A DNA stretch of 64,000 nt from Candidatus Latescibacterota bacterium (GCA_965242865.1 CBDETK010000013.1:2176001-2240000), one strand, 5' to 3'; positions 29,051-48,648 are shown, counted from the first letter of the stretch. The notes: generated from the sequence alone by a model not told the origin. A program made the numbers and translations.

Positions 29051-29051
29051 C

Positions 29052-31641: not shown

Positions 31642-32631
31642 ATGAAAATTCTCGTTACTGGAGCCGCGGGTTTCATCGGTTATCACCTGTTGCGCCACCT
31701 GCTGGAAACCGGCCATGACGTGGTTGCCATAGACAAGGTCCACTCAAACGAAAGGCTGGACATCTTGGCCCAGTATGAGAATTTCGACTTTCGGCATGGC
31801 AACATCGCAGACGGTTCCTTGGCTCAGGATGTCGGACAGGTCGATTATATCGTTCACCTAGCCGCTTTGGCGGATGTTCGGAAATCGATTGGACGGCCAT
31901 ATATCCAAGTACAACAGGATGTCCTTGGATATGTCAATCTGCTTGAATACGCAAAAACGTTGGCAGCGCTGAAGCGGATGGTCTTCATCAGTTCTAGTTC
32001 AGTGTACGGGATCGGCGGCGGATTTTCCGAAACATCCCCTACCATGCCGATTTCGCCATACGGGGTGTCCAAACTAAACAACGAAAACATGAACACCTGT
32101 TACAGTCACCTATACGGATTCCCGATCACCAGCCTCCGGTTATTCACGGTATACGGCACTTATGGTAGGAACAACATGGCGATCTGGAAATTTACCAAAA
32201 ACATCGCTCTTGGCCGGCCGATCACCCTATTCAATAACGGGCTGAACAAAAGAGACTTCACCTATGTCAGCGACGTCGTGGATGCCATACTACGGGCCAT
32301 GTTCGACGAGAAATCGACCGGGCACAACGTTTACAATGTCGGCACGGGAACCAGCATTTCGGTATTAGAGGTCGTGCGTATTATTGAAAATATACTCGGC
32401 AAAACTGCGACGATAGAGACTACACCAGCACAGCCCGGGGACATCGCGGCAGCTTGTGCGGATATCACAAAGATCAAACGGGATTTGGGCTATGCCCCAA
32501 CGATCAATTTCACCAACGGCTTGCGGATGTTTTCCGACTGGTTGATTGACAAATCTCAACGCCCACTTACCCCTCGCCGCGCCCGCCATACAAATCCCGC
32601 ACTCGGCTCACCACCACGGCCAACAGAATGA
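31642..32631 (+). CDS. NAD-dependent nucleotide-sugar epimerase (UDP-glucuronate 4-epimerase-like)
   Basis: TGAAGFIG, HLAA, SSSSVYG, YGVSK, FTVYG, RDFTYV. Confidence 0.92.
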   Translation: MKILVTGAAGFIGYHLLRHLLETGHDVVAIDKVHSNERLDILAQYENFDFRHGNIADGSLAQDVGQVDYIVHLAALADVRKSIGRPYIQVQQDVLGYVNLLEYAKTLAALKRMVFISSSSVYGIGGGFSETSPTMPISPYGVSKLNNENMNTCYSHLYGFPITSLRLFTVYGTYGRNNMAIWKFTKNIALGRPITLFNNGLNKRDFTYVSDVVDAILRAMFDEKSTGHNVYNVGTGTSISVLEVVRIIENILGKTATIETTPAQPGDIAAACADITKIKRDLGYAPTINFTNGLRMFSDWLIDKSQRPLTPRRARHTNPALGSPPRPTE

Positions 32632-33526
32632 TCGACCCCAAAAACGCCTGTTCGTAATAGACATTGGCTTCCAGCATCACCAAGCCGTTCTTGATGAGGA
32701 CGATGATGACCGCCCCCAGCAGCAGGCCCAGCGCTGAGATGCGCCCGCCCGACAGGCCGGTTCCGCCGACAATGGCCACCGCAAAGCTGGTTATCAGCCA
32801 GTCCTTGCCCGTCGCCGGTTGCGCCGAACCCATCCGCGACACCCACAACACCGCGGCCAGCGCACCCACTCCGCCCGACAGCACGTGCGACCACAGGACC
32901 AGCCGCTCGGTGTGGATCCCGGCCAGCCTAGCCGCTTCCCGATTGCCCCCGGTTGCCAACAGCCGCCGGCCAAAGACCGTGTGCCGGAATGCGTAGTGCG
33001 TCGCCAGCAGCACCAACCCCATCGTCCAGAACAAATTCGACAGCCCCAAAAACCTCTGCCGTCCCACAAACGTGAACGCCCGCGGGATGTCCGTGTAGGC
33101 GTAGCCTTCGGAAAACCCATGCACGAGGCCGGTAAAGACAAAAAGCGTCGCCAGCGTGGCGATAAAGGAATTGATCTGCAGCCGCGTGATGATGATCCCG
33201 TTGACCCACCCGGCCGCGCTGCCGATTCCCAACGCCACCAGCGCTGCGAACCACCCGGGCAACCCCAACACCTGAATGCAGTACCCGGTGGCGATGGTGG
33301 CCAAGCCGCCGATGGCCCCGACGGATAGGTTCATCCCCCCGCCGACCAGCACCACGGCCTGCGCCAACGCCACCAACGCGGAGAACGCGACGATCCGCGA
33401 GATATTGAAGAGGTTGTACGCGGACAGAAAGCTCTCCGAGCTGAGCGCACAGCCCACAAACAGCAACCCGGCCGACAAGGCGATTCCCGCGTCGTTGTGC
33501 CGCATGAGTCGGCGTAGGCGTTTCAT
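32567..33526 (-). CDS. Sugar ABC transporter permease (RbsC-like)
   Basis: GGMNLSVG, FIATL, GRRLLATGGNREAARLAGI, AVAIVGGT. Confidence 0.92.
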   Translation of the reverse strand: MKRLRRLMRHNDAGIALSAGLLFVGCALSSESFLSAYNLFNISRIVAFSALVALAQAVVLVGGGMNLSVGAIGGLATIATGYCIQVLGLPGWFAALVALGIGSAAGWVNGIIITRLQINSFIATLATLFVFTGLVHGFSEGYAYTDIPRAFTFVGRQRFLGLSNLFWTMGLVLLATHYAFRHTVFGRRLLATGGNREAARLAGIHTERLVLWSHVLSGGVGALAAVLWVSRMGSAQPATGKDWLITSFAVAIVGGTGLSGGRISALGLLLGAVIIVLIKNGLVMLEANVYYEQAFLGSIILLAVVVSRVRDLYGGRGEG

Positions 33527-33538
33527 CGTCGCAGCGAT

Positions 33539-34726
33539 CTACTCCTCGCGTCGCCGGCGTTGGGATTCCATCCAGAAGTACAGCGCGTGCAGAAGGTTGG
33601 GGAAGCGGTAGCCCCCGCTGACTTCGGGATCTTTTTCCAACGCTCCCAATTTTGTCATGCGGCGGAGAAAACTGTCCAAGCCCTTTTTCTCCTCAGCCGT
33701 CAGGAGTTTTTGCAGCTCCGCCCGCCGGAAGTGGGTTCTAGGCTCATCCGCCATTTTGCGGAGGATCGAGTGGTATCTCTCGCTGCGGATGGCACTAAAT
33801 ATCTGCGGGGTCAGCAGTTTCCGCCCGATGACTTCAGCGGCTGTGGAAATACCTTCCCATACCTCGTTCTTCTCGATGGTCGGGCCCCGAGCGGTCCGCC
33901 AAACCGCGTCCCCAATTTCGTGCGCCAAGACCGGCAAGCCGCCGGTAAACTGGGCCAGCCCCTTCAGCGACTCTTCGGATATCTTCGCCCCGCCAGCGTC
34001 AAACGATTGTCGGTAGAATTGCGAGACCTCGTCATCCGACCAAGGAGCGATGTCGATCAACTCGAAGACGCGAGCCAGCGACGGTTGCTTCCCCGCCAGT
34101 TCCCGCCGCCTCTCCTCAAGCCCTACCACGACAATGCAGAGGCGAATTTCCTCTCGAGCAGTCGCGATCGCATCTACGGTGCTCTTGAGCCAGTTGGCGA
34201 AACTCTCCGAGTTGGCCAGTCCATTGATGTCGTCGAGGATCAGAAAGAGCGACTTCTTGTGCTCCTTGATGCTCTCCAATAGCTGCCTCACCGATGGCAC
34301 AAAGTCGCGTTCCATGGCGGACAGGTCCTGCTCCGCGAGATTCAACTCAAGCGTTACGCCAAAGAGCCCCACCTTGCTGACGCGATTGCCGAATAGGTTT
34401 ATGAGTTGTTGATGCCAAGACTTGTCGATGCTCTCTTTCAGGATGCGGTCAAAGGTCCGGCGCAGCATCTCCCGGAGCTCCTGAACGCCTCCGAGGAAGA
34501 CGTGACACCCGGCCACGTCGTGGTCGCTTTCGACCAAGTGGCGAACAAAAGCAACGAGGGAGCTTTTGCCGATACCCCGCTCGCCGCTGACAAAGCCGAT
34601 CTTGAAGCGGCCTTGCGCACTGGCGTTGACCATGCCGCGCAGCCGCTCTATTTCGGGGCGGCGTCCGACAAAGAACTCAATCGGCACGGGTTGTCCGGGT
34701 CTGAACGGACTAGATTCAGGAGTCAT
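33539..34726 (-). CDS. AAA_16/archaeal-type P-loop ATPase with probable C-terminal wHTH
   Basis: SPFRPG..FVGR..E, Walker A GERGIGKS, Walker B LILDD, TGGLP. Confidence 0.8.
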   Translation of the reverse strand: MTPESSPFRPGQPVPIEFFVGRRPEIERLRGMVNASAQGRFKIGFVSGERGIGKSSLVAFVRHLVESDHDVAGCHVFLGGVQELREMLRRTFDRILKESIDKSWHQQLINLFGNRVSKVGLFGVTLELNLAEQDLSAMERDFVPSVRQLLESIKEHKKSLFLILDDINGLANSESFANWLKSTVDAIATAREEIRLCIVVVGLEERRRELAGKQPSLARVFELIDIAPWSDDEVSQFYRQSFDAGGAKISEESLKGLAQFTGGLPVLAHEIGDAVWRTARGPTIEKNEVWEGISTAAEVIGRKLLTPQIFSAIRSERYHSILRKMADEPRTHFRRAELQKLLTAEEKKGLDSFLRRMTKLGALEKDPEVSGGYRFPNLLHALYFWMESQRRRREE

Positions 34727-34775
34727 GTTACTTTTTCCTTTTTGGTGATTAGGCGGCACTAGCCGCCAGCCATCG

Positions 34776-36284
34776 TCAGTTTAGGTGGCGGCCGATGCGG
34801 CGGCTTATCGCGTCGTAGCTCAACCCCCGCTCGTGGATCTCGGCGACCTCGTGGACGATCTGCTTTTCCTTAAAGACGAGTATCCGCCCGGCCAAGCCGA
34901 TGAGCTCGGGCATGTCCGACGAGATCAAAACGATGGCCTTGCCTTCTTGGGCCGCCAAGTCCCAGAGCAAGCGGTGAATCTGGGCCTTGGCTTGGATATC
35001 CACCCCAACGGTCGGCTCATCGACGATTAGGATGTCGCAGCCGGCCGCCAGCCACTTGCCCAAGCTGACCTTTTGCTGATTGCCGCCGCTGAGGTGGCTG
35101 ACCGCCTGGTCCAAGCCGGGCGTGCGAATATCCAGCGCGGCGACCATGGCCTGCGCGGCTTGTGCCTCGGCTCGGTCGTCGATCCGGCGGGTGAACGTGC
35201 CGACGATCCGCTCCCATATCGTAAGGCCGAGATTGGTCCGAACGGCTGCGTCCAGCAGCAGGCCCTCTTCTTTGCGGTTTTCGGTTACGTAGGCCATCCT
35301 GTATTTGTACAGGCTGTCGGCCACTGAGCGGATCCGCGCTTTGACGCCGTGGATATAGACGGCCCCCCGCTCGGCCGGCTCGGCCCCGACCAGCAGCCGC
35401 GCCAGCTCGGTGCGCCCGGCCCCCACCAAGCCGTACCAGCCCAAAATCTCGCCGGCGTAGAGCGAAAAACTCGCGTCGTGCGCCCGGCCCCGCGCGTACA
35501 GCCCTTCGGCCCGGAGCACCTCCCGCGCCCGGTCCACCACGGGCCGACCAAACGACGCGGTCGCGGCCGACCGACCGATCATCATCTCGATCAACTCGGC
35601 GCGCGGCAGCCCGGCCAGTGCCCTCGTACCCACGTGGCGGCCGTCCCGCAACACGCTGACTTGGTCGCCGATTTGATAGACCTCGTCGAACTTGTGCGAG
35701 ACAAAGACGATGGCTACCCCCGCCTCCTGTAGCTGGCGCAAGATGCCAAAGAGCCGGGCCGCTTCGTGCTCGGTAAGCGACGACGTGGGCTCGTCTAAGA
35801 GCAGGACGCGCGCTTGGGCCGACAGCACCCGCGCAATCTGCACGAGTTGCTTGTGCGCCGCGCTCAAACCGCCAATCGGAGCGTGCGGGTCGAGGTCGAG
35901 GCCGACCCGGGCCATTGCCGCCCGCGCTTGGTCGTCGAGGCGCGGCCAGTCGAGGCGGCCCCATCGGCTGAAGGCGTCTAACTTGTCGAGCATGATGTTC
36001 TCGGCCACGCTGGCCTCGGGCACGACCGCGATCTCTTGGGGGACGAGGCCAATGCCGCGGTCGAGGCAGTTGCGACGGTTGCGGACGCGCAGCCGTGCAC
36101 CGCCCAAGCGCAGCTGCCCGGCGTCGGGCTGGTATATCCCGGTGACAATTTTGAGTAGGGTGCTCTTGCCCGCGCCGTTTTCGCCGACCAAGGCGTGAAT
36201 TTGGCCCGCCTGAAACGAGAGCGACACGTCGTCGAGTGCTTGGACGCCGGGGAAGTGCTTGCTGATGGATTGGAGTTGTAACAC
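34776..36284 (-). CDS. Sugar ABC transporter ATP-binding protein (RbsA-like, tandem NBD)
   Basis: GENGAGKST, LLDEPT, LSGGNQQK, DEPTVGVD. Confidence 0.94.
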   Translation of the reverse strand: MLQLQSISKHFPGVQALDDVSLSFQAGQIHALVGENGAGKSTLLKIVTGIYQPDAGQLRLGGARLRVRNRRNCLDRGIGLVPQEIAVVPEASVAENIMLDKLDAFSRWGRLDWPRLDDQARAAMARVGLDLDPHAPIGGLSAAHKQLVQIARVLSAQARVLLLDEPTSSLTEHEAARLFGILRQLQEAGVAIVFVSHKFDEVYQIGDQVSVLRDGRHVGTRALAGLPRAELIEMMIGRSAATASFGRPVVDRAREVLRAEGLYARGRAHDASFSLYAGEILGWYGLVGAGRTELARLLVGAEPAERGAVYIHGVKARIRSVADSLYKYRMAYVTENRKEEGLLLDAAVRTNLGLTIWERIVGTFTRRIDDRAEAQAAQAMVAALDIRTPGLDQAVSHLSGGNQQKVSLGKWLAAGCDILIVDEPTVGVDIQAKAQIHRLLWDLAAQEGKAIVLISSDMPELIGLAGRILVFKEKQIVHEVAEIHERGLSYDAISRRIGRHLN

Positions 36285-36300
36285 GACGATTCAGCCCGCG

Positions 36301-37596
36301 TCAACAAGCGGTCATTAGGCCCGCCTGATACCCGCGCCGTACTTCTCGGCAGAACCTTTCGTAGTCGTTTAGGGCTATGGGCCGGTAATGGGCTAAATCG
36401 TTGCGGATCTGCCGCGACCAACGCGCTAGACGGATCCACCGCCGTTCCCGCTCGAGCTTCGGACAGTACCGCAGCAGTGCTTCGAGATGCCCCCACTGAC
36501 AGGCAAAGGGCGTATCTCGCACGGCCTGCTGTTCGGCGTCGAGCTCTGGTTCTTCCCACCGATAGGGCCAATCCGGGCCATACCGCTGGTTGAGGTGGGC
36601 ACACAACGCCAAGCGCGCTTCGTCGATTTGGGGCAGTAGCAGCCCAGCCTGACCGCGCCATAAGCGGTGGTCTAAGGCTTCTTGGCGGTCGAGTTGGGCC
36701 AAGACCGCGCTGTGGCGTTCTAGACCGCGTTCTAGCGTCCAATGCACCATTCCCCGGGCCCAGCTTTGATACAAAGGAGCGGGCAAGGGCCAGCCCTCTG
36801 GCCGCGTCCCTTCTCGGGGAAAACCTTCCATCGACGACGCTTCCAACTCGGCCTTGGTCCAGCCGCGTTCCTCGGCAAAGACCCGCAGCACGTCCGTCAA
36901 CTCGGCACCCGTGCTATACTCTTGAACCCACAAGTAATCGCCCAAGCATAGATCCGATCCGGCAAGGGCTGGAATCACAGACTCTTTCCAGCGGCTCAGG
37001 GGCGTGGAATCCTGCGCCGCGGCCAGTTGACACAACAGCCGCATTTCCAAGGTCGTGGGGATGCCCCACCAGACGTGGACCGCCAACAACACATTGGTCG
37101 AAGGCGGCGGAGGCGGCACCTTTGACGCTTGGGCGAGCAGACACAGGGCCGGCAGGATTTTGCCGCCCTCTTCGTCGGTCGAGTGCCGGCCTTGGCACAC
37201 TTCAGCCCACTGCACCATAAACCGCAGCCAACGCCTTCGGTCCTCTTCAGCCAATTCGTCAAACCCATCGAGCAACAGGATTTCGGGCAGGTCCGCTTGG
37301 CTGAGGAGATTCGCTAGGGTGCGCGGCGCGGTGGAAGTGCCCCAGTCTATGCCCAGCGTGTGGGCCAACGCGGCCGCGGGCATTTGCGCGTCTAATTGGG
37401 GGACGAACACCTCGTGGAGGTGCAAATCCCAGCGTTCCAAACCATTCAATACATCCAACCGCAGCGGATTGGAATCCACGCCTTCGGGCAGCAAGCCCAA
37501 TACACTGCGCCCCGCCCGCAAGTCGTCCAACATCCGACCGAGCAACTGCCGCACCGTGGGCATCTGAATGAGGGAGGTCGCCAGTCCCAAGCTCAT
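36301..37596 (-). CDS. Hypothetical protein, possibly a degenerate P-loop; partner of the large ATPase
   Basis: ATG at 37596 overlaps the upstream stop (ATGA); LRAGRSVLGLLP, ILLLDGF, IRNDLAH. Confidence 0.7.
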   Translation of the reverse strand: MSLGLATSLIQMPTVRQLLGRMLDDLRAGRSVLGLLPEGVDSNPLRLDVLNGLERWDLHLHEVFVPQLDAQMPAAALAHTLGIDWGTSTAPRTLANLLSQADLPEILLLDGFDELAEEDRRRWLRFMVQWAEVCQGRHSTDEEGGKILPALCLLAQASKVPPPPPSTNVLLAVHVWWGIPTTLEMRLLCQLAAAQDSTPLSRWKESVIPALAGSDLCLGDYLWVQEYSTGAELTDVLRVFAEERGWTKAELEASSMEGFPREGTRPEGWPLPAPLYQSWARGMVHWTLERGLERHSAVLAQLDRQEALDHRLWRGQAGLLLPQIDEARLALCAHLNQRYGPDWPYRWEEPELDAEQQAVRDTPFACQWGHLEALLRYCPKLERERRWIRLARWSRQIRNDLAHYRPIALNDYERFCREVRRGYQAGLMTAC

Positions 37597-40500
37597 GGCG
37601 TGCCAACCACCCGCCCCAAAACGGCCTCGACTTGGTACGCCCCGTCCCTTTTTTCGAGGCATCCGAGGCGGTACAAAAGCTCCACAGCCGCTTGGCAGTC
37701 CTCCAGCGAGAGCGGCCCTTTGACGAAATCTACCAGATCCGCTAAGTCCTCTTCTGATACCTTGGATTTGTACTCCACTAGCGTCTGTAGGACCCGGAAC
37801 GGCTCCACTGGGGTAGAGAAGCCGAGCTGCTGTACCAGCTTGGAACCTAACGCGGACCCCGGCAGCTCCATCTTCGCGCAATCCCTCGGGTCGTTGAGGT
37901 TGCCGCACCGGCGCAACAGCTCGTCGAGCAATGAAGACCATCCCCCGGTCGCTTGCAGGACCGCCGCGCAACACTCGGGCAAATCGAGCTTCCCGGCTTG
38001 GTCCAGCCGCTGCCGAATTCCTTCTGCATCCCAGCGCCGCAAAAAAATCAGGTTTGCTTGGTCTTCCAAGGCAGTGCGTTTAGGGGACTTCAGCCAAGCC
38101 CAAGAAGCGGCCGGATCAAACATAAAGACCACCTGTCGAGGCCGTTGACGTTTTTTGTTGCGGCTGTTGTGGCTACTCAGGACATCCCAAACAAATTGGG
38201 CCATATTGCCCCCAGTGCCTCGGATCGGGCGATAGAACAACGATTGCTGCTTGTGGGTGTGCGAATCCAACCACTCGACGGTCTGATTCGGCCATTCAAT
38301 GCCCCCCACGCGCTTTAAGGCTTGTATTAAGACATCCAACCCTAGGGCGGCGGAGCCAAAAATTAGGCTCACCCCCGATTGTTCGGGTTGCAGCAACCGG
38401 CCTTCCTGCACCAGCGTCAAGGGGCTGTACAGGAGCTTTGAGGCATCTAATAGTCTATGCTGACTTTCGGGTATCGATGGGCGCGGCGGATGAATATCGA
38501 GCTCCAGCAGGCGATTTTCGATGTCCTCTTCAGTGCCCATCAGACGAACCAAGTTGGGACTACGCAGCGAGTACTTGTTTTCTACGTTGCACAGCAGGAT
38601 GCCTAACCCGACCATTTCGCCGAGCAACCCCCGCAAGGCTTCGAGGTCGAGGTCGTTGAAGCCTTGCGGGGACCACTCCCGGGCCAATTTTTGCAGCTCG
38701 GCCACGCTGAACGACCGAGCATAGCTGTCCGGGGTCTCCTTTTGTTCGTGAATCATGGCCCAAGCAATGCACTGATAGCGGGAATCGAGCGCGAGCGTCC
38801 AATCGAGCCGCTCGCGGATGACCGCCCGCGTTTGCGGCAGGCGATATACCGCATCTACATCGTCGAGTTGCACCTTGTAGGGAGGGCTTGCCGAGCGTCT
38901 TTGGGTTTGGAGGCGATGGAGCAGTTCGCGGCAAAAATACTGGATCAAACCCGGATGGTAGTTGGTGTACGACAGGACCTTGAGCACCGTGGTTTCATCG
39001 GCGAAGCGATAGCCCAGCGTCTTCAGGGGCTCGCGCACCAACTCCCGCGCCGGACGAGCTTCGAGGGGACCGACCAATAGGTTTTGGCCGAAATGGGCGA
39101 GGGGCTGATTGGCGATGTTCTTGAACCGCTGGACATCGTGCAGCCCGGCAAACACCACCCTGAAGCGCGACCCGGTGTCTTGGATCAAGGTTCGCAAGCG
39201 GTCCACTTCGGGGAAGCCCCTTTTGGCATCGGCGTCGAGAAAGCGATCGGCTTCGTCAAACAGGACCAGAACCTGCCGTTGCGGCGCTTCCGCCAGCGAC
39301 CGCTCGATGCGTTTGATGATGTTGTCGGGCTGGTTGGCCGTTACGCTGCCTTTTATGAGCTGGTGTTTCTTAAAGCCCTCGCGCAACTTGATCCACAAAG
39401 AAGCGGGCTGTTCGCCGGCAAGGGGGTCGTCGCCCACGAGCTTGATGTCCTCGACCCACGCGAATTGATCGCGGTCGGGCTGGTGAAACTCGCGCTCTAC
39501 TTGGCGCAGCAAGGCGGATTTGCCCAACTGACGCCCCCCGAATACGATAGAGCCTTCCGCGTCTTGCAACTGGCGGACCATGTCGCCGCGGCCATAAAAC
39601 ATCTCGGGCGGGACATTGCCCGCTTGGAACGGCGTGTAGGGATTGAGGGCCGCGTAGGGCAGGCTACAGCGCAGGAAGGCGGGAAGGCGCGTGTCGTCGA
39701 AGCGGGTCAAAAACGCGAGCAGGACTTCGTCGAGCACGACCAACGCTAGGCCGCGTTCGCGCGCCCGCCGCGCTAAGGAGTGCCGGCGATGCGCGGTCAA
39801 GCGCCCTAAGAAGAAAATCAGGACCGTCTTGGCGTCTAGCCCCAACTCGCGCAGGAAAGCGCCGATGGTGTCGGCGCCGGGCCGCTCCCACAGACACACC
39901 ACGTTATACCGGCCATGCGCTTGCGAGCCCAGCTGCGGAATGGGTCGGGCCAAGTCGCTGGCCGAGGCTTCTACTGTGCAATAGAGCCCGTCTTGGCCGT
40001 GCTTTTCGACCCGCACCGCCGCCTCTTCCCGCGATACGTGGAACCCCAAGAACTCCAACAAGACTCGGATGGGCCGATGGATTTTTTTCGGGTCTCCCGG
40101 TTGGCGCTTGAGCCGGTGCCAAACGCGCAGGGCGGCGACGGCCTCGCTCCGCCGCACTTGCGGCAATTCGCCAAACTTCACGCCGGCCCAAGTTTGGCCT
40201 TGCTCGATCCATTCGGACAGTTGATCGACGTTCTTGTCGCGCAGCCCGGATTCGATGCCGCGACAAGCGTCTTGAAACTCCTCAAAGACATCGCGCTTGT
40301 CGGTCGGGGTAAACCACTCGCTCTTCCATTCGCTTTCGCCTTGAGCAACGCCCCGCAAGAGGGCCAAACTCTCTTCCACGACCCGGGTATCGCACTGCCG
40401 GATCGCCCGCCGAATAAACGCGTCGGTAGCTTCGAGGCGCTCGGGTTGGATGCGCTGGGCTAGACTGCGCCGCATTTTTCGCCATTGAGCCGCTAACTCT

Positions 40501-42707
40501 TGCAAGCGGTCGCTGAGCTTTGCCTCCAAGTTCCGTTCAATCTGCTCCAATCGCTGGAACAGCGGTTGGATGTGGATGGAGTGTTCGACGTCGGGCAGTT
40601 CGGCATTGAGGCGGTCGCGTTCTTCTTCCGAAAGCAGCCCATCCACGATGCCCTGCTCAATGGCCCCTTGCACTTTGGCGACTTGATCCGCCAGCGCCGC
40701 CCGGGCCCCTTTGAGATTCTCGTCGATCCGATTTTCATATTCTCGGCGGGCCTCGTCGCCCTCCAACGCATTTAGCAAGGCGTCGGTGAAGCGAAAATCC
40801 AAGCCTTCTATTCGCAGCGTACAGGCCGTGTGTAGCGAGCGTTCCTCGGCGAGCGATTGGCACAACGCCTTCGCCATATCGGCTTCGTGGCCCGCTTCGG
40901 GATAGCCCTCTGGGGTGAGGGGAACTTCGGGGAGCCACAACAAGCGATGGGCTAATGCTTCCTCGAGCGAATCGCTGTCCCGTTTCATCCAAGCGTCCGG
41001 GGCTGCAATATCGGGTTGTTCCTCGATACCGAGCATCCCCAGCACTCGGCCTACGGCTTGGCGCAAGACAGCTCCCAAAGCGGCTACTTCTTGGCGTGGG
41101 TCGGCCTGCATGCGGTCGAGTTCCGCCCGGACTCCGGGCCCGGTCTCGCGGACGCGGTCGAGCAGTGCTTTCACGTGCTCGGACCACCAATTCCCCTTGC
41201 TGTCGCTGGCCTGCTCAATGAGGGAACACCAGCGACCGGCCAACCCCACGGCCTCTTCGACGCTGCGAACCAACTGATCAATGGGCCGGCCGATGATGGG
41301 TTTTGGCCGGCTCTGTACCAGATCTTGATCGATCTGGTGGATCAGAGCCACAATCCGCTTGCGCTCCTTGAAATCGCGCAGGTGCTGCCGGACCAGCTTG
41401 ACTTCGGCGGCCTTGTTTTCAACTACCGGAGCAAGTAAGAGGTGCAATGCCCCGTTCTGGCTGACCAAGTGGTGCAACACATGGGTCGCTCGCTTGTACT
41501 TCAATCGGCTGTCCTTACTGGTCGCCAAGAAGCGACGGGCCTGCCCCACGGTACTTTCAATGAACTTTTGGTGATTGCTCTCTCCTTCTACCTCCCGCAG
41601 ATCGGCGTCCTGCAACGCATGGCCCGCGGACGCAAAGGTGCGGACCGCATCGGCTAGCGCACCGAGCGCGGGATCGATTTCGTCCCGTTGCGGGAGCCAG
41701 CCGCTCAACCCCGTGGTCTGCGGAGCGATCAAGCTGGGACGCAGGGCCGCAGACAACCCCAGCAACTGCTCGAAAGGGGTGTTTTGAGGCTCCCACTCTG
41801 AGGCAATTTCCAGCATATCAAAGACGAATTTATCGGTATCGCTTTCCAACCAGTGCGCGCCTTGAAGAACGGCGAGCAGTTGGGGAGCAACGGGCACGTC
41901 GCGGCCTGCGGCCTGCAAGGAGCGCACCAGCCAGTACGCCCCGGCCCAATCCCCTGCGGCCAAGAGGCTCCATCCCAATGATGCCCAGTGTTCATCGTCG
42001 TCCTCGCCTTGCAACAGGGCCGCGGCCACCTGTTGGACCGGGCGCAAAGGCCGCGGCTTTTCCTCGGGGGGCGGGGGCGGAGGTTCGGGGTCTTCAGGCG
42101 GTGCTTTTTCCTCGGGGAGACTGGACTCTTGCTCTTGGGGTGGATCGATGGCTTCTGCGGAATCCGGGGCCTCTTGGACGGGACTAGGCGGTTCTGGGGG
42201 CGGCTCCTCTGGAGGCTCGGGGGTTGGCGCGGAAAAGCCTTGGTTGAGTTGGTCCAACCCAGCGCTAATCCGGTCTTCCACGGCCTCCATAGCCGCTCGG
42301 TGCTGGCGGGCTTGTTGGATGTTTTGGGGGACGTGCTGGTCTAAGGTGCGGCGTTGGGCCAAGTGCTCCAGCAGGGCCTGCACCCGCTCGGTCTGTTCGG
42401 GAAGGTGCTCACTCGGACAATGATTTGCTTGCCAGTGGGCTAGGTCTGAATCGCTGAAATTGAAAAACGCGAGATCGCTCTCGTGGTTTTGCCGCAGTTG
42501 CGCCAGTGCCTGTTCGAGCCGCTGGATCCGCCCGGCCTCATCCCGTTCTCGGCCTTTCTGCGCGGCCACCTGTTGGACTTGGTCGATAAACGCTTGGGCT
42601 ACTTCCCATTCTGACGCCTCGGCCGGCCATTGACGCATCTCTGCAATTAGATTGGCCCACTGAGTTTTCTGAAGGGGCTCTGCGGTGTGCGCTTTTTCAG
42701 CGGGCAT
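37593..42707 (-). CDS. 1704-aa STAND-like P-loop ATPase with long helical N-terminus
   Basis: NPYTP...MFYGR, Walker A GGRQLGKS, Walker B VLFDEAD, TNYHPGLIQ; Pro/Glu-rich linker near the N-terminus. Confidence 0.8.
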   Translation of the reverse strand: MPAEKAHTAEPLQKTQWANLIAEMRQWPAEASEWEVAQAFIDQVQQVAAQKGRERDEAGRIQRLEQALAQLRQNHESDLAFFNFSDSDLAHWQANHCPSEHLPEQTERVQALLEHLAQRRTLDQHVPQNIQQARQHRAAMEAVEDRISAGLDQLNQGFSAPTPEPPEEPPPEPPSPVQEAPDSAEAIDPPQEQESSLPEEKAPPEDPEPPPPPPEEKPRPLRPVQQVAAALLQGEDDDEHWASLGWSLLAAGDWAGAYWLVRSLQAAGRDVPVAPQLLAVLQGAHWLESDTDKFVFDMLEIASEWEPQNTPFEQLLGLSAALRPSLIAPQTTGLSGWLPQRDEIDPALGALADAVRTFASAGHALQDADLREVEGESNHQKFIESTVGQARRFLATSKDSRLKYKRATHVLHHLVSQNGALHLLLAPVVENKAAEVKLVRQHLRDFKERKRIVALIHQIDQDLVQSRPKPIIGRPIDQLVRSVEEAVGLAGRWCSLIEQASDSKGNWWSEHVKALLDRVRETGPGVRAELDRMQADPRQEVAALGAVLRQAVGRVLGMLGIEEQPDIAAPDAWMKRDSDSLEEALAHRLLWLPEVPLTPEGYPEAGHEADMAKALCQSLAEERSLHTACTLRIEGLDFRFTDALLNALEGDEARREYENRIDENLKGARAALADQVAKVQGAIEQGIVDGLLSEEERDRLNAELPDVEHSIHIQPLFQRLEQIERNLEAKLSDRLQELAAQWRKMRRSLAQRIQPERLEATDAFIRRAIRQCDTRVVEESLALLRGVAQGESEWKSEWFTPTDKRDVFEEFQDACRGIESGLRDKNVDQLSEWIEQGQTWAGVKFGELPQVRRSEAVAALRVWHRLKRQPGDPKKIHRPIRVLLEFLGFHVSREEAAVRVEKHGQDGLYCTVEASASDLARPIPQLGSQAHGRYNVVCLWERPGADTIGAFLRELGLDAKTVLIFFLGRLTAHRRHSLARRARERGLALVVLDEVLLAFLTRFDDTRLPAFLRCSLPYAALNPYTPFQAGNVPPEMFYGRGDMVRQLQDAEGSIVFGGRQLGKSALLRQVEREFHQPDRDQFAWVEDIKLVGDDPLAGEQPASLWIKLREGFKKHQLIKGSVTANQPDNIIKRIERSLAEAPQRQVLVLFDEADRFLDADAKRGFPEVDRLRTLIQDTGSRFRVVFAGLHDVQRFKNIANQPLAHFGQNLLVGPLEARPARELVREPLKTLGYRFADETTVLKVLSYTNYHPGLIQYFCRELLHRLQTQRRSASPPYKVQLDDVDAVYRLPQTRAVIRERLDWTLALDSRYQCIAWAMIHEQKETPDSYARSFSVAELQKLAREWSPQGFNDLDLEALRGLLGEMVGLGILLCNVENKYSLRSPNLVRLMGTEEDIENRLLELDIHPPRPSIPESQHRLLDASKLLYSPLTLVQEGRLLQPEQSGVSLIFGSAALGLDVLIQALKRVGGIEWPNQTVEWLDSHTHKQQSLFYRPIRGTGGNMAQFVWDVLSSHNSRNKKRQRPRQVVFMFDPAASWAWLKSPKRTALEDQANLIFLRRWDAEGIRQRLDQAGKLDLPECCAAVLQATGGWSSLLDELLRRCGNLNDPRDCAKMELPGSALGSKLVQQLGFSTPVEPFRVLQTLVEYKSKVSEEDLADLVDFVKGPLSLEDCQAAVELLYRLGCLEKRDGAYQVEAVLGRVVGTP

Positions 42708-42809
42708 ATCGCCTCCTCGATTCTACGTCGGGTTTACTACACGACACCAACTCCAGCGGCACATAAAGAAGGACGCCAAACTATCCACGGTCAAACCATT
42801 CCATCGCTG

Positions 42810-43844
42810 CTATTCGGCGGGTGAGCGCAAGTACTTGGTCTCCAGCTCGCCCATAATCCGTGCGGTGATGGCCCGGACTTCGTCCTCAAAGGTATCGACG
42901 TTGGCTTGGGTCACCAGCACCGTGCCCGAGTTGACGAAGTAGTGCTCGGGATGGGCTTGCCAGCCGTCGAGCAGGTAGCGCAAGAGGGCGCAAGAGATGT
43001 AGCCGTGGCCGTAGGGGTTTTGCGAGAGGGTCGCGTCGATGGCCCCTTGGCGGATCGCGTCGAGCACCACCGCGTCCGTGTCGATGCCGACGAAGTGGAT
43101 GCGCTCGTTGCCCGGGGTCTGGTTCCATTCGGACAGAATCGTCGCCGCGGCCACGGTCGGGGTGTACCCCGTGCAAATCACGCCATCGATCTCCGCGATC
43201 CGCGCTGAGAGCGCGTCTTGGATTTTGGCCGTGCTGGTCTCAATCGACTCCATGCCGGCGATTTCTTGGACGATCTGGACCGCGGGGTATTTGGCCACGG
43301 CCGCCTCAACGCCTTCTTTGCGCAGGATGGTGTTGGGGTCTTCGACCAGCTCTAGCACGTTGAGGATGTGGCCCTCGCCGCCCATAAAGCCGATCAGGGC
43401 CTCGGTCGCCTCCATCGCTGCCTGCCGGACGTCGGTCGCCACGCAAAACGAAGCTGGCGTCGGCCGCGTCGTCGGCGCTCCATAGCTGACGACGTACGCT
43501 CCGTTTTGCACCAATTCCTCGTAGAGGCCGTTGGCCGCGCTGGCGTCGGCCGGATAAAGCGAGAAGCCCTTGTAGCCTTGGGCCGCCAGCGGCTCGACGT
43601 TGGCGTTTTCGTTGTCTTGGGTCCAGTTTTGGCCGATCTGACGCTTGATCTCGACTCCGGTGTCGCGCTCATAGCCGATCACCCCTTTTTGCACCTCTTC
43701 GACGTAAGGATGGACCATCAAGGCGTACCAGACGATTTTTTTCGCCGCGGGCGCGTCGCCCGATTGGCCGGACCCGCCGCACCCGGCGACGAGTGCGGTG
43801 AAAAGGAAAGCTGCGAGGAGAAATGGGAGAAAAGTTTTGTACAT
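42810..43844 (-). CDS. Sugar ABC transporter substrate-binding lipoprotein
   Basis: Lipobox LVAGC; periplasmic binding fold motifs VGIDTD, ATLSQNPYGHGY. Confidence 0.9.
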   Translation of the reverse strand: MYKTFLPFLLAAFLFTALVAGCGGSGQSGDAPAAKKIVWYALMVHPYVEEVQKGVIGYERDTGVEIKRQIGQNWTQDNENANVEPLAAQGYKGFSLYPADASAANGLYEELVQNGAYVVSYGAPTTRPTPASFCVATDVRQAAMEATEALIGFMGGEGHILNVLELVEDPNTILRKEGVEAAVAKYPAVQIVQEIAGMESIETSTAKIQDALSARIAEIDGVICTGYTPTVAAATILSEWNQTPGNERIHFVGIDTDAVVLDAIRQGAIDATLSQNPYGHGYISCALLRYLLDGWQAHPEHYFVNSGTVLVTQANVDTFEDEVRAITARIMGELETKYLRSPAE

Positions 43845-43900
43845 AATTATCCTCTTGATTTGGAGCGTCGGGAGGGTGAATGATTATGCTACGTTTGCGA

Positions 43901-44034
43901 AGAAGCGTCCTTAAAAATCACGTTGCTTTTGGCCTAGTCTTTCACGCCTCTAGATGTCATTCCCGCGAACGCGGGAATCCAAAAAAGCACCAAGCCGAAT
44001 CGGAGACTGAAAACCTAGTTTTAAGAACGCTTCT
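43901..44034. mobile_element. MITE-like element (family B) with internal GTCATTCCCG REP palindrome
   Basis: TIRs agaagcgtccttaaaa / ttttaagaacgcttct (1 mismatch); internal gtcattcccgcgaacgcgggaatcc; partial inverted copy at about 52741-52845. Confidence 0.75.
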
Positions 44035-44068
44035 AATACAAAATCAAAGCTAGCGTGAATGCTCCGAG

Positions 44069-45403
44069 CTAAACCATGTCTTGGCCAATGAACTCAGGTT
44101 TCTCTCGGACGGGGGGTGGTTCGATATCGTCAATTTCGCTCGGTCGTTCGTACTTGCCGATATTAAAACTGGCTTGACTCAATCCCCAAGCAACCGCGAG
44201 TCGATGATATGACTTGTCGTCAATCTCTGCATCGAGAGAATTGGGCTTTGGTAGCTGAATCTGTATAATACCGTCTGAACTCCTAATCCACCTCTGAAGC
44301 CATTCCCCAGCATCAGATACTACATCCTGATACGCTCGCATGACACTCCCGCCCCCACAAAGAAATACGGGAAGTGTACTGTTCCAACAACGAGACAAAG
44401 GATCGCGTTTACTCCGTAAGTCCCCAATTGTTCTGGTGAGAACTTTCTTGCAATCATTTCTGAATCTTCTTTCTGCTCCGGCTCCCCTTCTCTGACGTAG
44501 TATTTCTACTCCGAGAAGCTCGAGGTGGGCGGTGAGTATGGGTACTCGGTCATCTCCTTCATGTTGTCTTGGTCCTAGATTGAATGAACAGACATCCAGC
44601 GTACTCGCTCCAATATCCACCAAAAGGTGAAGCCCTTCGTTTCGGCGCGGCGAGTTGGCATATCCTGCTACTTCCGCGATAACTTCCGGTCTCAATTCAG
44701 AGTCAATAGGCATCTCCTCAGATTCATACCTTGCGAACATGACATCATCAATTGCCTCTTGAGCATCGTCAACCGTTATTGGTCCGGGCCGTCTTGAGGC
44801 GAGCCAAGCAGCCTTGTGCGATATGCAAAAGGCATCTCGTAGTTTTTCATTGTCATCAACATCAGCAGGTAAGCCGAGATTGCATGACCACTCAAGATAA
44901 TACTCGCCGAAGACATTTCTCTTATTCGCGATAAACCAGCGGCGGACATATCGGAGTACTAAGGCAAGATAGGCGACCGCTACCGTGATTGAAGATGCGT
45001 CACAAGGTGGGCCGGACGCGGAGTTTATTCCCTTGTTTGGCTCATTCATCAAGCCAAGTTTTATATCCTTAAGGAACGAAGCTCCTGGCGTATAGGCGAG
45101 TGAACACCGTCGGTCCTCGTCGATAAACAATTGGGTGGGAATCAAGTACTTCAGGCTTTCATCAGCGAGTTTACCGAAAGGAACGGCAAATGCGGGCTCG
45201 CCAGCGTAGAATGGAACATTTACTACGACCTTGGTGAATGACGTTCCAATATCCACTCCCACTATAACATCGAGGGGTTGCGAGCGGTCATTATGCTGGA
45301 ACTGGTGTTCGTTTTCAGAAATCATGCTTACTCTCCATAGGTTAGAAGAAGGGGGGAACGTTGTCATGTAGGAATCGGAAGCTGGTATAAAAAACCCCAT
45401 CAT
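44069..45403 (-). CDS. ASKHA (actin/Hsp70/FtsA-fold) ATPase-like protein
   Basis: Phosphate-1 VGVDIGTSFTK, connect PEVIAE, phosphate-2 LVDIGASTLD, adenosine LCGGGS, AVAWGL. Confidence 0.75.
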   Translation of the reverse strand: MMGFFIPASDSYMTTFPPSSNLWRVSMISENEHQFQHNDRSQPLDVIVGVDIGTSFTKVVVNVPFYAGEPAFAVPFGKLADESLKYLIPTQLFIDEDRRCSLAYTPGASFLKDIKLGLMNEPNKGINSASGPPCDASSITVAVAYLALVLRYVRRWFIANKRNVFGEYYLEWSCNLGLPADVDDNEKLRDAFCISHKAAWLASRRPGPITVDDAQEAIDDVMFARYESEEMPIDSELRPEVIAEVAGYANSPRRNEGLHLLVDIGASTLDVCSFNLGPRQHEGDDRVPILTAHLELLGVEILRQRRGAGAERRFRNDCKKVLTRTIGDLRSKRDPLSRCWNSTLPVFLCGGGSVMRAYQDVVSDAGEWLQRWIRSSDGIIQIQLPKPNSLDAEIDDKSYHRLAVAWGLSQASFNIGKYERPSEIDDIEPPPVREKPEFIGQDMV

Positions 45404-48400
45404 TCAATTAGAACTACAGCTACGAAAATCTCTTCGGACTCAGGAGTTATCTTTCGACGCGATTCAATCTCCCGTCGCCTTCTTTCACCCCAATCATCAA
45501 GGCTCCTCAAACGTCCCTTGGTTGCAGGTATCATTCTATTTCTCCCTGTCTCCCTAAAGTTTCTGAGTGTACGTTCGATTCCTTCCCTTTGCTTTGAAAA
45601 GTGTCGATGGCGATGTCTCTCTTGGATGTCTGCCCGGTCTTCGTTTTGATTCCTTTCTTCTTCGGTATAGCTTTCAAAGTGGCCATCAAGAGTTCTGAAC
45701 AGAACCTCGTCGGCGATGTAATGGACTTGCTGTAGTTCACACTGATGTCCGACTTCCAGCCAATGCCTCCCTTTCGCAGCGCAGGTGATGGCAAGACGTT
45801 CAGCCTTGTCTTCGCGGAGGAGTGTTTCTGGCCGATCCAGCGGGACGGCCGCGTAAACGAGTTTCTCTACATCTCGAAGTCCCTTGATGCGCCAAAGGGA
45901 AGCCGCCAAAACGTAAACGCCTAGCCCGAGGGATATATCAAGATCGCACCTTGAAACTTTTACGGACACAGCCGGGCGGAGCTGAGGGACTGTTTTTGAG
46001 ATTCGATCACTGATGAAACGAACCAGAGGGTGAAATTGGGAAATAGTCTCCTTTCTCTCGGGCTTTCCAGCTAATACGCGGTTTTTGAACCGACAGATAA
46101 TCGGTTTGGCCGAGTACTGGTCCAATTGCGTTTGACCGCTCAAATTGTTCAATCGGATAAACTCCGATAGAGCATGCCTCGCTTCGCTATTCAGAGATAG
46201 TTCGTATTCGTGGTTCTGTCCATCTGTTTCCTTAAGCACATAACCGGGGTAATTAGCACTTAGGAAATCGGTCACATAAGCGAGCAGGTCGGTTCCGTTG
46301 ATCCAACGATTCATATCGTGTGCAGCCTTAACCTGCTGGAGAATGTAGTCGCCGTATGCCACCAGATGTGCTGCATTTGCTTCCAAGCGCTCCTCTTCCT
46401 GTTTCCGCGTCGCTAGGGCTTGGGCGGTTTGGTTGATGCGCTCTTCTTGTTGTTTGGGCGATAAATGACCCAGAACTAGATCGCGTGTGAGTTTTTCGAT
46501 CTCCTCGCCGAGAATGGCCTCAAAATCGCCCAACGCATTTCGGCACAAATCGAGCTTGTCGTAGAGGCATTCATAGATACGCGCATCTATCGTATTGGCA
46601 TAAAAAAGGTTCCAGATCAGCACCTTCTCGGATTTTTGGCCGAGGCGATCAACGCGGCCGATTCTCTGTTCGACGCGCATGGGGTTCCAAGGAAGATCGT
46701 AGTTGATCACGACCCATGAAAATTGGAGATCAACGCCCTCTCCCCCCACTTCTGAAGACAGCATAACGCTCGGTCCCTTGGGCGACCTGAATTCTTGGAT
46801 AATGTCGTACTTGGGCCGGCTGCCGCCGCCGCGAAGGACAATGCTCGAAATACCGTCGTCGTCGAGCCGTTCTTTCAAGTAATCAAGTGTACCCAAGAAT
46901 GTGGAAAAGACGATGACTTTGTCTTTTGGATATTTCTCGAAGAACTCCTGCAACATTTTACGTAACCGCGTATATTTGCTGTCGCTACCTGCGAGGTCAT
47001 CGAAAGCAACGAATTCACCTGAGTTATTCACTAGTTCTTCTGTTAGTGGTCCCAATTTTTGCCGTTGTCGGGCATCCTGATCTGTCCCTGAAAGCTGGTC
47101 TTCGGGAATCTCAATACGCCGTTCCTGCCAAGATTTCAGGGCAGCCGGCATACAGCTAGCCATCTGGCGCTGAGGCTGAGCGAGCAGAAAGGCTTCGTTA
47201 ATGTCGTTTTCTTGGGCGTATGAGCCGACGATATTCGTTACGGTATCGTAGAATTCGCGCTCTATCTCCGTCATCGGAATGAACTTGGGAATTGGCTGGC
47301 GAACGACGCGCCACTCCTTGACGTCTCTTTTCCGGGTCCGGGTTATGGTATGGCCCAATAGGTTAATGGTTTCGAGACGATAGGCGATACGGCTTCGTTT
47401 TGTAGGTGAATCGAGGGACCCATCCTCGATCTGGTCTAATAGGGTTTTAAGTTGCCGGTTGCCCTGCAAAAGGCGGTTGTTTCTATCTTCCGAAAGCACT
47501 GAAACCAACTCGTCAGGCGAGCTCTTCCCCTTCAACACACGGTCTAATAGGGTTTTAAGTTGCCGGTTGCTCTGCAAAAGGCGGTTTTTTCTAGCTTCCA
47601 AAAGTACTGAAACCAACTCGTCAGGCGAGCTCTTTCCCTTCAACACTAAGTCCCGCGCACGGACCAATGGCTCGTTGGCCCTGAGGATTTCGTCAAAATT
47701 ATCTTCCCGCTCAAAGGTGTCGGGATCAAGGAGATGAAGCAGGGAGAAGAGATCGCGGTTGTAGTTATGGATCGGAGTCGCGGTCAGTAGGACGAGATAG
47801 TCAGAAACACCGCGCATCAGCTGGCCCAAGCGATTGGTTTGGGTGGCGGGATTACGCATGTAGTGTGCCTCGTCAACCACAAGCAGGTCGATAAGATGTT
47901 CTTCGTGTTCCTTCCCCTTGAGAAGCCGAGCCAACTTACCGACATCGTTAGCATCGTCCTCAGCATCTTCCCAACCGCGGCGAGGACGCAGACCCTGGAT
48001 GCTTGCGATGATGGCAAATCCCCGCACGTGTGCTTGCCGGTCCTGCAAAATTCTCAGGGTATCCCTCGCGGTGCAAATCTCTGGGGACACGCCGATCTTG
48101 TTGACGAGTTCGTCCCGCCATTTTTCACGCAGAGCAGCAGGACATAAGACGACCAGCCTTTTCAAATTGAATCGGCTTCTTAGCTCAGTCCAAATCAGTC
48201 CTGCTTCAATGGTCTTGCCCATACCAACCTCATCAGCGATTAGCAGGCTGTTCGTCGGAGTCTGAAGGAGCTTGAGGACGGGCTTGAACTGGTAGGCATA
48301 GAAGTCCGTATCGGTGGCTTCCATGCTATAAATGATGTCGGCCAATCGCCCCGTGAGACGAACATGGATCAGTGTCCGCCGAAGAGCCTCGGGCGTTCCG

Positions 48401-48630
48401 AGTTTCCCCGTGTACAGCAAATCGAGAGGGTGCATCGGCTCATCAGGAAGCGGTTCAAGTTGCTCCTTCGGTATGAAGTCGGGTGCTGGCCTGTCATTGA
48501 ATCGAACCCGATATACCTGACGACCTCTTCTTAGGACACAGACTCCGTCTGTCAGCGTACCGACCCGCTGCGGATCGTGAATCAGTCGCACCTGCTTTCC
48601 AGCTTGCCATTTTTCCTCGCCGCTCTGCAT
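45400..48630 (-). CDS. SNF2/RapA-like SF2 helicase
   Basis: IADEVGMGKT, VDEAH, LTATP, GEGVDLQ, NYDLPWNP, EQRIGRVDRLGQ. Confidence 0.92.
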   Translation of the reverse strand: MQSGEEKWQAGKQVRLIHDPQRVGTLTDGVCVLRRGRQVYRVRFNDRPAPDFIPKEQLEPLPDEPMHPLDLLYTGKLGTPEALRRTLIHVRLTGRLADIIYSMEATDTDFYAYQFKPVLKLLQTPTNSLLIADEVGMGKTIEAGLIWTELRSRFNLKRLVVLCPAALREKWRDELVNKIGVSPEICTARDTLRILQDRQAHVRGFAIIASIQGLRPRRGWEDAEDDANDVGKLARLLKGKEHEEHLIDLLVVDEAHYMRNPATQTNRLGQLMRGVSDYLVLLTATPIHNYNRDLFSLLHLLDPDTFEREDNFDEILRANEPLVRARDLVLKGKSSPDELVSVLLEARKNRLLQSNRQLKTLLDRVLKGKSSPDELVSVLSEDRNNRLLQGNRQLKTLLDQIEDGSLDSPTKRSRIAYRLETINLLGHTITRTRKRDVKEWRVVRQPIPKFIPMTEIEREFYDTVTNIVGSYAQENDINEAFLLAQPQRQMASCMPAALKSWQERRIEIPEDQLSGTDQDARQRQKLGPLTEELVNNSGEFVAFDDLAGSDSKYTRLRKMLQEFFEKYPKDKVIVFSTFLGTLDYLKERLDDDGISSIVLRGGGSRPKYDIIQEFRSPKGPSVMLSSEVGGEGVDLQFSWVVINYDLPWNPMRVEQRIGRVDRLGQKSEKVLIWNLFYANTIDARIYECLYDKLDLCRNALGDFEAILGEEIEKLTRDLVLGHLSPKQQEERINQTAQALATRKQEEERLEANAAHLVAYGDYILQQVKAAHDMNRWINGTDLLAYVTDFLSANYPGYVLKETDGQNHEYELSLNSEARHALSEFIRLNNLSGQTQLDQYSAKPIICRFKNRVLAGKPERKETISQFHPLVRFISDRISKTVPQLRPAVSVKVSRCDLDISLGLGVYVLAASLWRIKGLRDVEKLVYAAVPLDRPETLLREDKAERLAITCAAKGRHWLEVGHQCELQQVHYIADEVLFRTLDGHFESYTEEERNQNEDRADIQERHRHRHFSKQREGIERTLRNFRETGRNRMIPATKGRLRSLDDWGERRRREIESRRKITPESEEIFVAVVLIE
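47433..47646. repeat. In-frame 108-bp tandem duplication inside the helicase
   Basis: Copies start at 47433 and 47541; the protein repeats VLKGKSSPDELVSVL..NRLLQ.NRQLKTLLD twice. Confidence 0.93.
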
Positions 48631-48648
48631 TCCTTTTGTTTCCCCCCT

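Follow-up and report, generated by a model that had tools for sequence, protein, structure and literature searches.

The window analysed here, 64,000 nt of Candidatus Latescibacterota bacterium (GCA_965242865.1 CBDETK010000013.1:2176001-2240000), carries at 36301..42707 two overlapping genes that encode a 1704-aa protein with an active STAND-type nucleoside triphosphatase (NTPase), hereafter the giant, and a 431-aa partner with an AAA+/STAND-like module that has lost its nucleotide-binding motifs and a HEPN-like C-terminal domain. We lean towards reading the pair as a self-contained, horizontally exchanged conflict (defence-type) cassette, built on a design in which an active STAND protein is combined with an inactive STAND-effector protein. 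The genes and their parts are laid out as follows, with positions counted from the first nucleotide of the window.

37593..42707, minus strand: giant protein gene, 1704 aa plus stop, a single open frame
42228..42707, minus strand: giant residues 1-160, A/Q/E-rich helical head, the most poorly conserved part of the giant
42033..42227, minus strand: giant residues 161-225, Pro/Glu-rich linker (40% P, 22% E)
40071..42032, minus strand: giant residues 226-879, conserved, probably helical region (from the family consensus)
39687..40070, minus strand: giant residues 880-1007, alpha/beta domain (LGF...PIPQFGSQ...YxVVCLWERPG...VLDE; from the AlphaFold2 model)
38508..39686, minus strand: giant residues 1008-1400, NOD1, the active STAND NTPase including its helical lid and winged helix
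39516..39539, minus strand: Walker A motif GGRQLGKS, giant residues 1057-1064
39246..39257, minus strand: Walker B motif DEAD, giant residues 1151-1154
37596..38507, minus strand: giant residues 1401-1704 (NOD2), degenerate AAA+/STAND-like module with a terminal winged-helix-like hairpin
36301..37596, minus strand: partner gene (431 codons and stop), overlapping the giant gene by ATGA
36688..37596, minus strand: partner residues 1-303, AAA+/STAND-like module lacking a P-loop, with lid and winged helix
36304..36687, minus strand: partner residues 304-431, helical HEPN-like domain (HRLWRGQ ... RNDLAH)
36388..36405, minus strand: partner Rx4H motif RNDLAH, R398-H403

The giant frame translates to 1704 aa with zero internal stops, and every motif quoted by an initial annotation of this stretch is present in the order it gave: YNVVCLWERP at residue 934, LVVLDE at 989, NPYTPF at 1022, GGRQLGKS at 1057, FDEAD at 1150 and YHPGL at 1250, then VSLIFGS at 1446, VFMFD at 1527 and ATGGW at 1586 in the C-terminal part. 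Translation also bore out the 431-aa partner length, the Pro/Glu linker and the ATGA coupling that it had described, the last base of the partner ATG opening the TGA stop of the giant (...CCATGAGC...). A 4-nt overlap between giant and partner recurs in 19 of 29 related loci by our own open reading frame (ORF) calls. Reading the partner frame as 557 aa from a GTG codon was rejected and the 431-aa ATG start taken, because relatives are about 420-435 aa long and begin at the ATGA position. In a library clustered at 50% identity, the partner profile matched 1517 cluster representatives at E ≤ 1e-3, 967 at 1e-10 and 420 at 1e-30, and nearly all of the best 150 matches are 400-445 aa; the last 825 aa of the giant matched at least 1288 clusters, and its full-length relatives measure 1700-2100 aa. 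Judged by sequence, both are real genes and not chance ORFs.

Pairing of the two genes is conserved in both directions. A scan of species-representative genomes with partner motifs yielded 32 loci, 29 of which have the giant directly upstream on the same strand (one of these 29 is decayed and two are interrupted by inserted genes). When metagenome loci were retrieved by giant motifs alone, the partner lay directly downstream in 75 of 79, a fraction that overstates independence because several of these loci are near-duplicates; three of the remaining contigs end too soon and one locus lacks the partner. Pair-bearing records belong to Latescibacterota, Binatia, Acidobacteriota, Chloroflexota, Entotheonella, Armatimonadota, Myxococcota, Methylomirabilota, Syntrophobacterales and a Methanospirillum metagenome-assembled genome (MAG), a spread over about ten bacterial phyla and one archaeon. 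Clustering of all neighbours across loci returned no third gene conserved with the pair. The interrupting genes, neither of which has a Pfam match, lie between giant and partner in one locus (L008:8763-9881) and inside the giant in another (L019:6414-7307), and these broken cassettes suggest that some copies are decaying. In a Roseiflexaceae MAG (L025:8723-10573), a 616-aa ORF consists of the first 160 residues of the giant followed by the last 170 of the partner, and looks like a deletion derivative joining the head to the HEPN-like tail. Complex prediction for giant residues 1008-1704 with partner residues 1-303 gave a score of 0.00, which weighs neither for nor against binding.

The domain structure of the giant places a live NTPase ahead of a dead module. 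An AlphaFold2 model of residues 880-1704 (40-row alignment; pLDDT 78.5) opens with a beta-beta-beta-alpha-beta-alpha-beta domain (880-1007), continues at about 1022-1392 with a complete AAA+ module that includes lid and winged helix, and ends in a second alpha/beta module followed by helices and a terminal hairpin at 1401-1704, matching the STAND-type NTPase and second, degenerate NTPase proposed by the initial annotation. The first AAA+ module follows the STAND order of P-loop NTPase, helical domain with a GxP-type motif, and winged helix. The fetched loci contain 92 giants that are 1300 aa or longer; all 92 have Walker A (GxxxxGK[ST]) and 89 have Walker B (hhDE[AVC]D). By VIA-align, the NTPase scored 17.6 against PAB2304 (2qen), an archaeal STAND-like ATPase (316 residues aligned, root-mean-square deviation 4.8), 16.7 against SSO1545, about 15 against ORC/Cdc6, 13-15 against plant NLR resistosomes, 13-14 against MuB and TnsC, 12.6 against BrxC and 11.4 against Avs3. 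Foldseek aligned about 700 columns of the giant to tandem AAA+ proteins such as p97/Cdc48, which fits a second AAA+-like module; fold searches with this 825-aa model are dominated by the AAA+ module, with the alpha/beta domain and NOD2 hardly probed. NOD2 has no GK[ST] loop, retains a conserved TGGWP motif and bears a faint profile likeness to NOD1 (HHalign P 0.008 over 97 columns).

Of the two nSTAND families compared, profile alignment places the giant NTPase closer to nSTAND2 than to nSTAND1. Against 25 Pfam nSTAND2 members from Acidobacteriota, NOD1 aligned with an HHalign probability of 97.9% (E 4e-13) over 315 columns, which span the whole module from the NPY..FFGR motif to the winged helix, compared with 80.9% (E 1.2e-5) against 7 Pfam nSTAND1 members. 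HMMER with PF20702 (nSTAND2) matched neither the giant nor any of 22 full-length relatives. Pfam matches in these 22 are P-loop models (AAA_22, AAA_16, ATPase_2 and TniB, with nSTAND1 once above its cut-off and nSTAND6 weakly), and no family was found outside the NTPase, residues 226-879 included. Few parts of the giant are as conserved as the alpha/beta domain. By eye, its element order recalls Mrr-type PD-(D/E)xK nucleases; HHalign against 28 Mrr_cat sequences (P 0.034 over 9 columns) was no better than the negative controls, and the domain is left without a fold assignment. The first ~225 residues are the least conserved stretch, and in distant loci the head retains 25-29% identity versus about 40% for the core. 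Relatives on plasmids can be aligned only from about residue 105-347 of the giant and have other heads ahead of that point, for example sigma-70 or pPIWI_RE.

The partner combines an inactive module with a conserved C-terminal signature. A fold search of its model identified an AAA+/STAND-like fold with likeness to ORC/Cdc6 and clamp loaders, so that the degenerate P-loop features of the initial annotation correspond to a P-loop-less module of this fold. The Walker A position reads GRSVLGLLPEG and has no GK[ST], and for this reason the partner probably lacks the usual nucleotide binding; a candidate arginine finger, R186, is Q in several relatives. BLASTP and HHalign comparison of this module with NOD1 and NOD2 returned nothing significant, PF20702 had no HMMER match in 22 partner members, and HHalign against nSTAND2 gave P 0.07-0.14. 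From residue 305 onwards the AlphaFold2 model contains helices only. Across 75 partner sequences, with identity down to 29%, R311, W313, R314, R328, C332, R398 and H403 are invariant, and H310, A402, Y404, R405 and P406 nearly so. The RNDLAH sequence flagged earlier as a HEPN-like Rx4H motif occupies residues 398-403 and is embedded in Swt1-HEPN-like sequence; of 93 partner-like ORFs that are 300 aa or longer, 90 retain Rx4H, nearly always as RNxxAH and also in distant pairs at 25-31% giant identity, and the three ORFs without it are truncated or decayed copies.

Alignment of the partner C-terminus to 30 Swt1-HEPN domains of the same phylum gave an HHalign P of 0.0032 over 37 columns centred on RNxxAH, the nearest Atlas clusters include one auto-named as a Swt1-like HEPN (0.97), and Pfam HEPN_Swt1 is weakly detected in 6 of 22 partner members. 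As in these 30 bona fide domains, RNxxAH closes a helix, after which come a short loop and a further helix. Unlike Swt1-HEPN (PF18731), the partner matches below the Pfam cut-off and has an additional invariant HRLWRGQ motif, and the bona fide members in this phylum are proteins of about 1115 aa with another architecture. These comparisons give the HEPN assignment real but modest support.

The same build could hold a HEPN-like domain that is not a nuclease but an RNA- or nucleotide-binding sensor or regulator, with killing carried out elsewhere, for example by the alpha/beta domain or helical region of the giant. Purely binding HEPN domains often lose the Rx4H motif, whereas the partners keep this catalytic signature, with N after R, almost throughout, and both R398 and H403 are invariant; nor does the alpha/beta domain match a nuclease family. 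A binding role would suit the strong conservation of the alpha/beta domain, the weak support for HEPN family membership, and the observation that some relatives retain the giant core but encode a PLD-SNF2 helicase or a DrmE_C protein in place of the partner. It would also suit the proposal, in the part of PMC8195603 considered here, that inactive STAND modules act as nucleic-acid receptors. We consider this version unlikely, while giving it some weight.

The pair is accessory and mobile. Of 168 genomes of the phylum, 13 have the partner, as do 8 of the 31 from the genus, the window's genome included. Here the pair separates the substrate-binding protein (SBP) gene from the ATPase gene of a sugar ABC transporter operon; the flanking features are as follows.

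42810..43844, minus strand: ABC SBP (Peripla_BP_4, 1.9e-38)
42708..42750, minus strand: conserved 5' leader (AAACC..GAC.TAGAAT.GAGGA..GAT, then ATG)
34776..36284, minus strand: ABC ATPase (ABC_tran, 3.6e-53)

Four genomes of the same genus lack the pair and have the three ABC genes contiguous, 5-10 nt apart. Cassettes occupy the SBP-ATPase junction in the window, L001 and L002, and the ATPase-permease junction in L003, L004, L006 and L008. Their flanking ABC genes are 87-94% identical to those of the window and their giants just 57-85%, which points to a hotspot holding different alleles and not to one inherited insertion. A leader of ~40 nt before the giant start is common to cassettes at both junctions, and 16 nt separate the partner stop from the next gene. 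Outside the phylum, an Entotheonella MAG (L012:3558-12269) has the pair inserted between def (peptide deformylase) and fmt (methionyl-tRNA formyltransferase), genes that usually stand side by side in bacteria. Relatives of the giant core are found in 29 plasmid records, and distant forms on 5 IMG/VR contigs (putatively viral); tblastn of the partner against plasmids gave no match.

Two further observations concern the ATPase-permease junction. A same-genus locus without the pair (L150:9505-13774) has a different, 4.2-kb insert at this junction, comprising a DDE transposase and three unknown ORFs and flanked by a ~60-nt direct repeat of the ATPase 3' end and permease 5' start. In L008 and L004, the 5' end of the permease gene is duplicated upstream of the cassette.

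Patchy distribution, hotspot exchange, plasmid carriage and a tightly coupled two-gene layout would also be expected of a selfish, addiction-type (toxin-antitoxin-like) cargo maintained by transfer and by damage to cells that have lost it, and HEPN toxins do occur in toxin-antitoxin pairs according to the portion of PMC7641770 used here. We regard this reading, or another non-defence accessory function, as improbable: the 1704-aa size, intact ATPase and swappable sensor-like heads are those of regulated STAND switches and not of simple toxin-antitoxin pairs, and the pair has no conserved neighbour resembling a small, labile antitoxin gene. A role in housekeeping or regulation linked to the sugar ABC transporter, or ORC/Cdc6-like DNA handling, would fit the co-orientation of the pair inside the ABC operon in 7 related genomes, the resemblance of its folds to ORC/Cdc6 and clamp loaders, and a GC content equal to that of the genome, but is largely refuted by the four intact operons without the pair, and its occurrence in so few genomes of the phylum, the unrelated context in other phyla and the absence of any ABC gene conserved with it leave this very improbable. 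That the giant is part of the machinery by which the cassette moves itself, serving as a TniB/TnsC/MuB-like AAA+ target selector, as the AAA_22 and weak TniB Pfam matches, precise insertion at gene junctions and conserved leader might suggest, deserves little credence, as no transposase or recombinase is conserved with the pair, the 16 nt after the partner stop leave no room for a terminal repeat, and ORC, NLR and archaeal STAND structures match as well or better.

Library searches returned little beyond generic models. Pfam gave AAA_22 (2.3e-6) and sub-threshold AAA_16 for the giant, both generic AAA models, and no match for the partner; NCBIfam matched neither protein; PDB sequences gave nothing for the giant and chance-level matches only for the partner, whether searched by single sequence or by profile; and PADLOC 2.0.0 had no model for the partner and, for the giant, only a chance-level LmuB match in the coiled coil (E 0.0077). 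Since PADLOC 2.0.0 is a 2023 release, the pair may be named in a more recent catalogue. A literature search of limited scope found no paper on this giant/partner family. The initial annotation had listed a catalogued match, an unconserved pair and an unconserved RxxxxH motif as outcomes that would count against it, and none occurred: PADLOC was negative, and the pair and the motif are conserved at the frequencies given above. Its proposal of a candidate undescribed system stands in that no PADLOC model matches, but not as regards the design, which had already been predicted.

That prediction, in the part of Kaur et al. 2021 considered here (PMC8195603, section 15, Fig. 6C and fig6-data1), is of a mobile two-gene nSTAND2 counter-invader operon. 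The first protein has an unknown N-terminus, a STAND module and a winged helix-turn-helix (wHTH). In the second, a STAND module whose NTP-binding motifs are eroded is joined to a wHTH and a variable effector (most often HEPN or GT4). Both proteins are expected to share a conserved arginine finger, and a hetero-multimer of the two STAND proteins was proposed. The second proteins described there are 530-640 aa with tetratricopeptide repeats (TPRs) before HEPN, or about 750 aa with GT4, and about 50 examples are listed from Gamma-, Alpha-, Beta- and Deltaproteobacteria. As in that account, the pair consists of two adjacent co-directional genes whose products both have an AAA+/STAND fold, the module of the giant being active and that of the partner having eroded NTP-binding motifs; the partner ends in a HEPN-like domain, for which family-level support is weak, and relatives add AAA_33 or swap the second gene. 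Unlike the operon as described in those sections, the partner here is 431 aa and lacks TPRs, the giant is extended by a dead AAA+ module, an alpha/beta domain and a helical N-terminal part of about 880 aa, the taxa are other ones, and PF20702 matches neither protein by HMMER. In addition to this pair, a Blastocatellia genome (G172) encodes a separate, bona fide nSTAND2 protein (an nSTAND2-kinase). Compared by way of Pfam members, the pair probably works like the nSTAND2 two-gene operon and would be a distant relative of it, not a demonstrated member. We note that the Acidobacteriota nSTAND2 members (L192-L216) are active NTPases (GERRIGKS, DEFD) of 640-720 aa fused to a Ser/Thr kinase; such nSTAND2-kinase proteins were found in 28 of 401 genomes sampled and their architecture is unlike the two-gene operon for which the family was named.

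Other known systems are less similar. Avs, in the sections of 10.64898/2026.01.04.697583 considered, is a single polypeptide with an N-terminal effector and a C-terminal TPR-like sensor; here, by contrast, a second protein, which has a dead STAND module of its own, carries the effector candidate, and the giant NTPase is followed just by a second dead module. Together with the absence of a PADLOC Avs match, this bears out the earlier view that the layout is not that of Avs. The likeness of the pair to ORC/Cdc6 and clamp-loader assemblies, which mix active and inactive subunits, is one of fold with no sequence relationship, and, unlike ORC/Cdc6, the pair is accessory and mobile and has no replication context.

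Several observations weigh against a defence-type cassette with a HEPN effector. The giant core had no match among 50,697 phage records, the GC content of the pair is about 0.60-0.62, the same as that of the genome, and the pair seems fixed at one operon in the phylum, which makes long residence possible. The best E value of Pfam HEPN_Swt1 among partner members is 0.043, never reaching the cut-off, PF18731 missed the partner in a whole-genome scan at E ≤ 1e-3, the HHalign probability of the partner against Swt1-HEPN domains is just 10%, and the fold search of the partner hardly covered the C-terminal domain. No profile likeness was detected between the AAA+ module of the partner and the modules of the giant or nSTAND1/2 (P 0.04-0.19). 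Both the giant/partner family and the nSTAND2 operon are known from computational prediction alone. Many neighbours of the pair are housekeeping genes, and its defence-type neighbours are raw sightings with no background rate.

For the favoured reading, that of a conflict cassette, we infer a scheme in which the giant would act as a switch driven by ATP. Sensing or targeting would likely fall to its variable N-terminal head and helical region, which would pick up an invader cue, and the nSTAND2-like NTPase would then drive a nucleotide-dependent assembly step. The dead AAA+ modules of giant and partner would likely be structural subunits of a mixed assembly, and the two proteins would bind one another and co-assemble through them. 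The partner would bring a HEPN-type RNase domain. Since HEPN RNase domains generally require the juxtaposition of two Rx4H motifs, an assembly that gathers partner copies would switch on RNA cleavage, which may stop the cell or the invader.

Relatives of the giant core on plasmids (26-36% identity) differ in both head and second gene. In Thiodictyon and Salinibacter, the giant is followed by a partner homologue (profile E 1e-23 with RNALAH and 1e-27 with RNRIAH, respectively). In Agrobacterium pTi, it adjoins a WYL gene and its second gene encodes a partner-like protein (RNNLAH) with an extra P-loop. An Azospirillum protein of over 3200 aa has a pPIWI_RE module (X, MID, RNaseH) as its head and a second gene for a partner-like protein plus AAA_33, Brasilonema has sigma-70 regions 1.2-4 as head and a PLD-SNF2 helicase as second gene, and the second gene in Burkholderia encodes a DrmE_C protein. 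This modularity of heads and second genes is as expected of conflict systems. The Burkholderia relative was considered as a GT4 form of the nSTAND2 operon and rejected, its second gene being DrmE_C and not GT4. In the Azospirillum oryzae plasmid (L185:2-9598), the pPIWI_RE module fused to the giant core is complete and a DUF6035/CoiA-like nuclease gene follows the partner-like gene; Bradyrhizobium and Microvirga plasmid records have the same annotation as the Azospirillum record, this match being one of annotation alone. The Brasilonema relative (L184:2708-9577) is 2289 aa long, begins with sigma-70 regions 1.2, 2, 3 and 4, and has the PLD-SNF2 helicase in place of a partner.

Tentatively, hetero-oligomeric STAND immune machines may make up a large superfamily, so far unrecognised, of which the pair would be the commonest form. 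Such machines would distribute three AAA+ modules, one live and two dead, over two proteins in an ORC-like assembly, with swappable sensor heads (coiled coil, sigma-70 and Argonaute-like pPIWI-RE) and swappable second-gene effectors (HEPN, HEPN with a kinase-like P-loop, PLD-SNF2 and DrmE-like), and in the pPIWI-RE forms guide-directed nucleic-acid recognition would be wired to the STAND switch.

Genes flanking the pair were scanned in 36 loci and in the L150 insert. Defence-type neighbours are the type I restriction-modification genes HsdM/HsdS (L005), BrxL with SIR2 and HerA (L017), Type ISP with NACHT-FGE (L027), helicase-MZB (L022), CHAT (L042) and ARPP-1 (L044), and in the window a DrmD-like SNF2 helicase lies two genes from the pair. 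At 32567-49801, the window holds three separate accessory insertions in one sugar ABC operon, all co-oriented with the operon. Besides the pair, one is the DrmD-like helicase with a 444-aa gene, between a 292-aa gene and the SBP gene, which are adjacent to each other in L001, L002 and L006; the other, lying between the ABC ATPase and permease genes, is a STAND gene encoding 406 aa. The helicase gene overlaps that for the 444-aa protein, which has no family match (44069-48630), and its region has a GC content of 0.49-0.51, compared with about 0.61 around it. The helicase matches PADLOC DrmD at 1.7e-257 and NCBIfam DISARM_DrmD at 385 bits, under the cut-off of 610, and no other DISARM gene stands beside it in the window. 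The 406-aa protein (33539-34759) is a lone AAA_16/ATPase_2/nSTAND1 STAND protein with a weak AbiEi-like C-terminus, and its gene is present in L001 and L004 and absent from four relatives. Further along, a PhyH dioxygenase gene and a SLOG (LDcluster4)/polysaccharide-deacetylase gene (28998-31573) lie at a low-GC edge (0.47-0.52 at 26-30 kb).

If the proposed reading is true, the family, with its 1517 partner clusters at 50% identity, would be among the larger candidate immune systems outside the libraries searched. It would also offer an experimental handle on a design of active and dead STAND proteins that is so far known by prediction only, and that parallels the helper/sensor NLR pairs of plants and animals. 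The Argonaute-like and sigma-factor heads of its relatives suggest one switch chassis re-aimed at different invader signals, and the operon-embedded hotspot suggests that a working transporter operon can accommodate variable cargo of the defence type.

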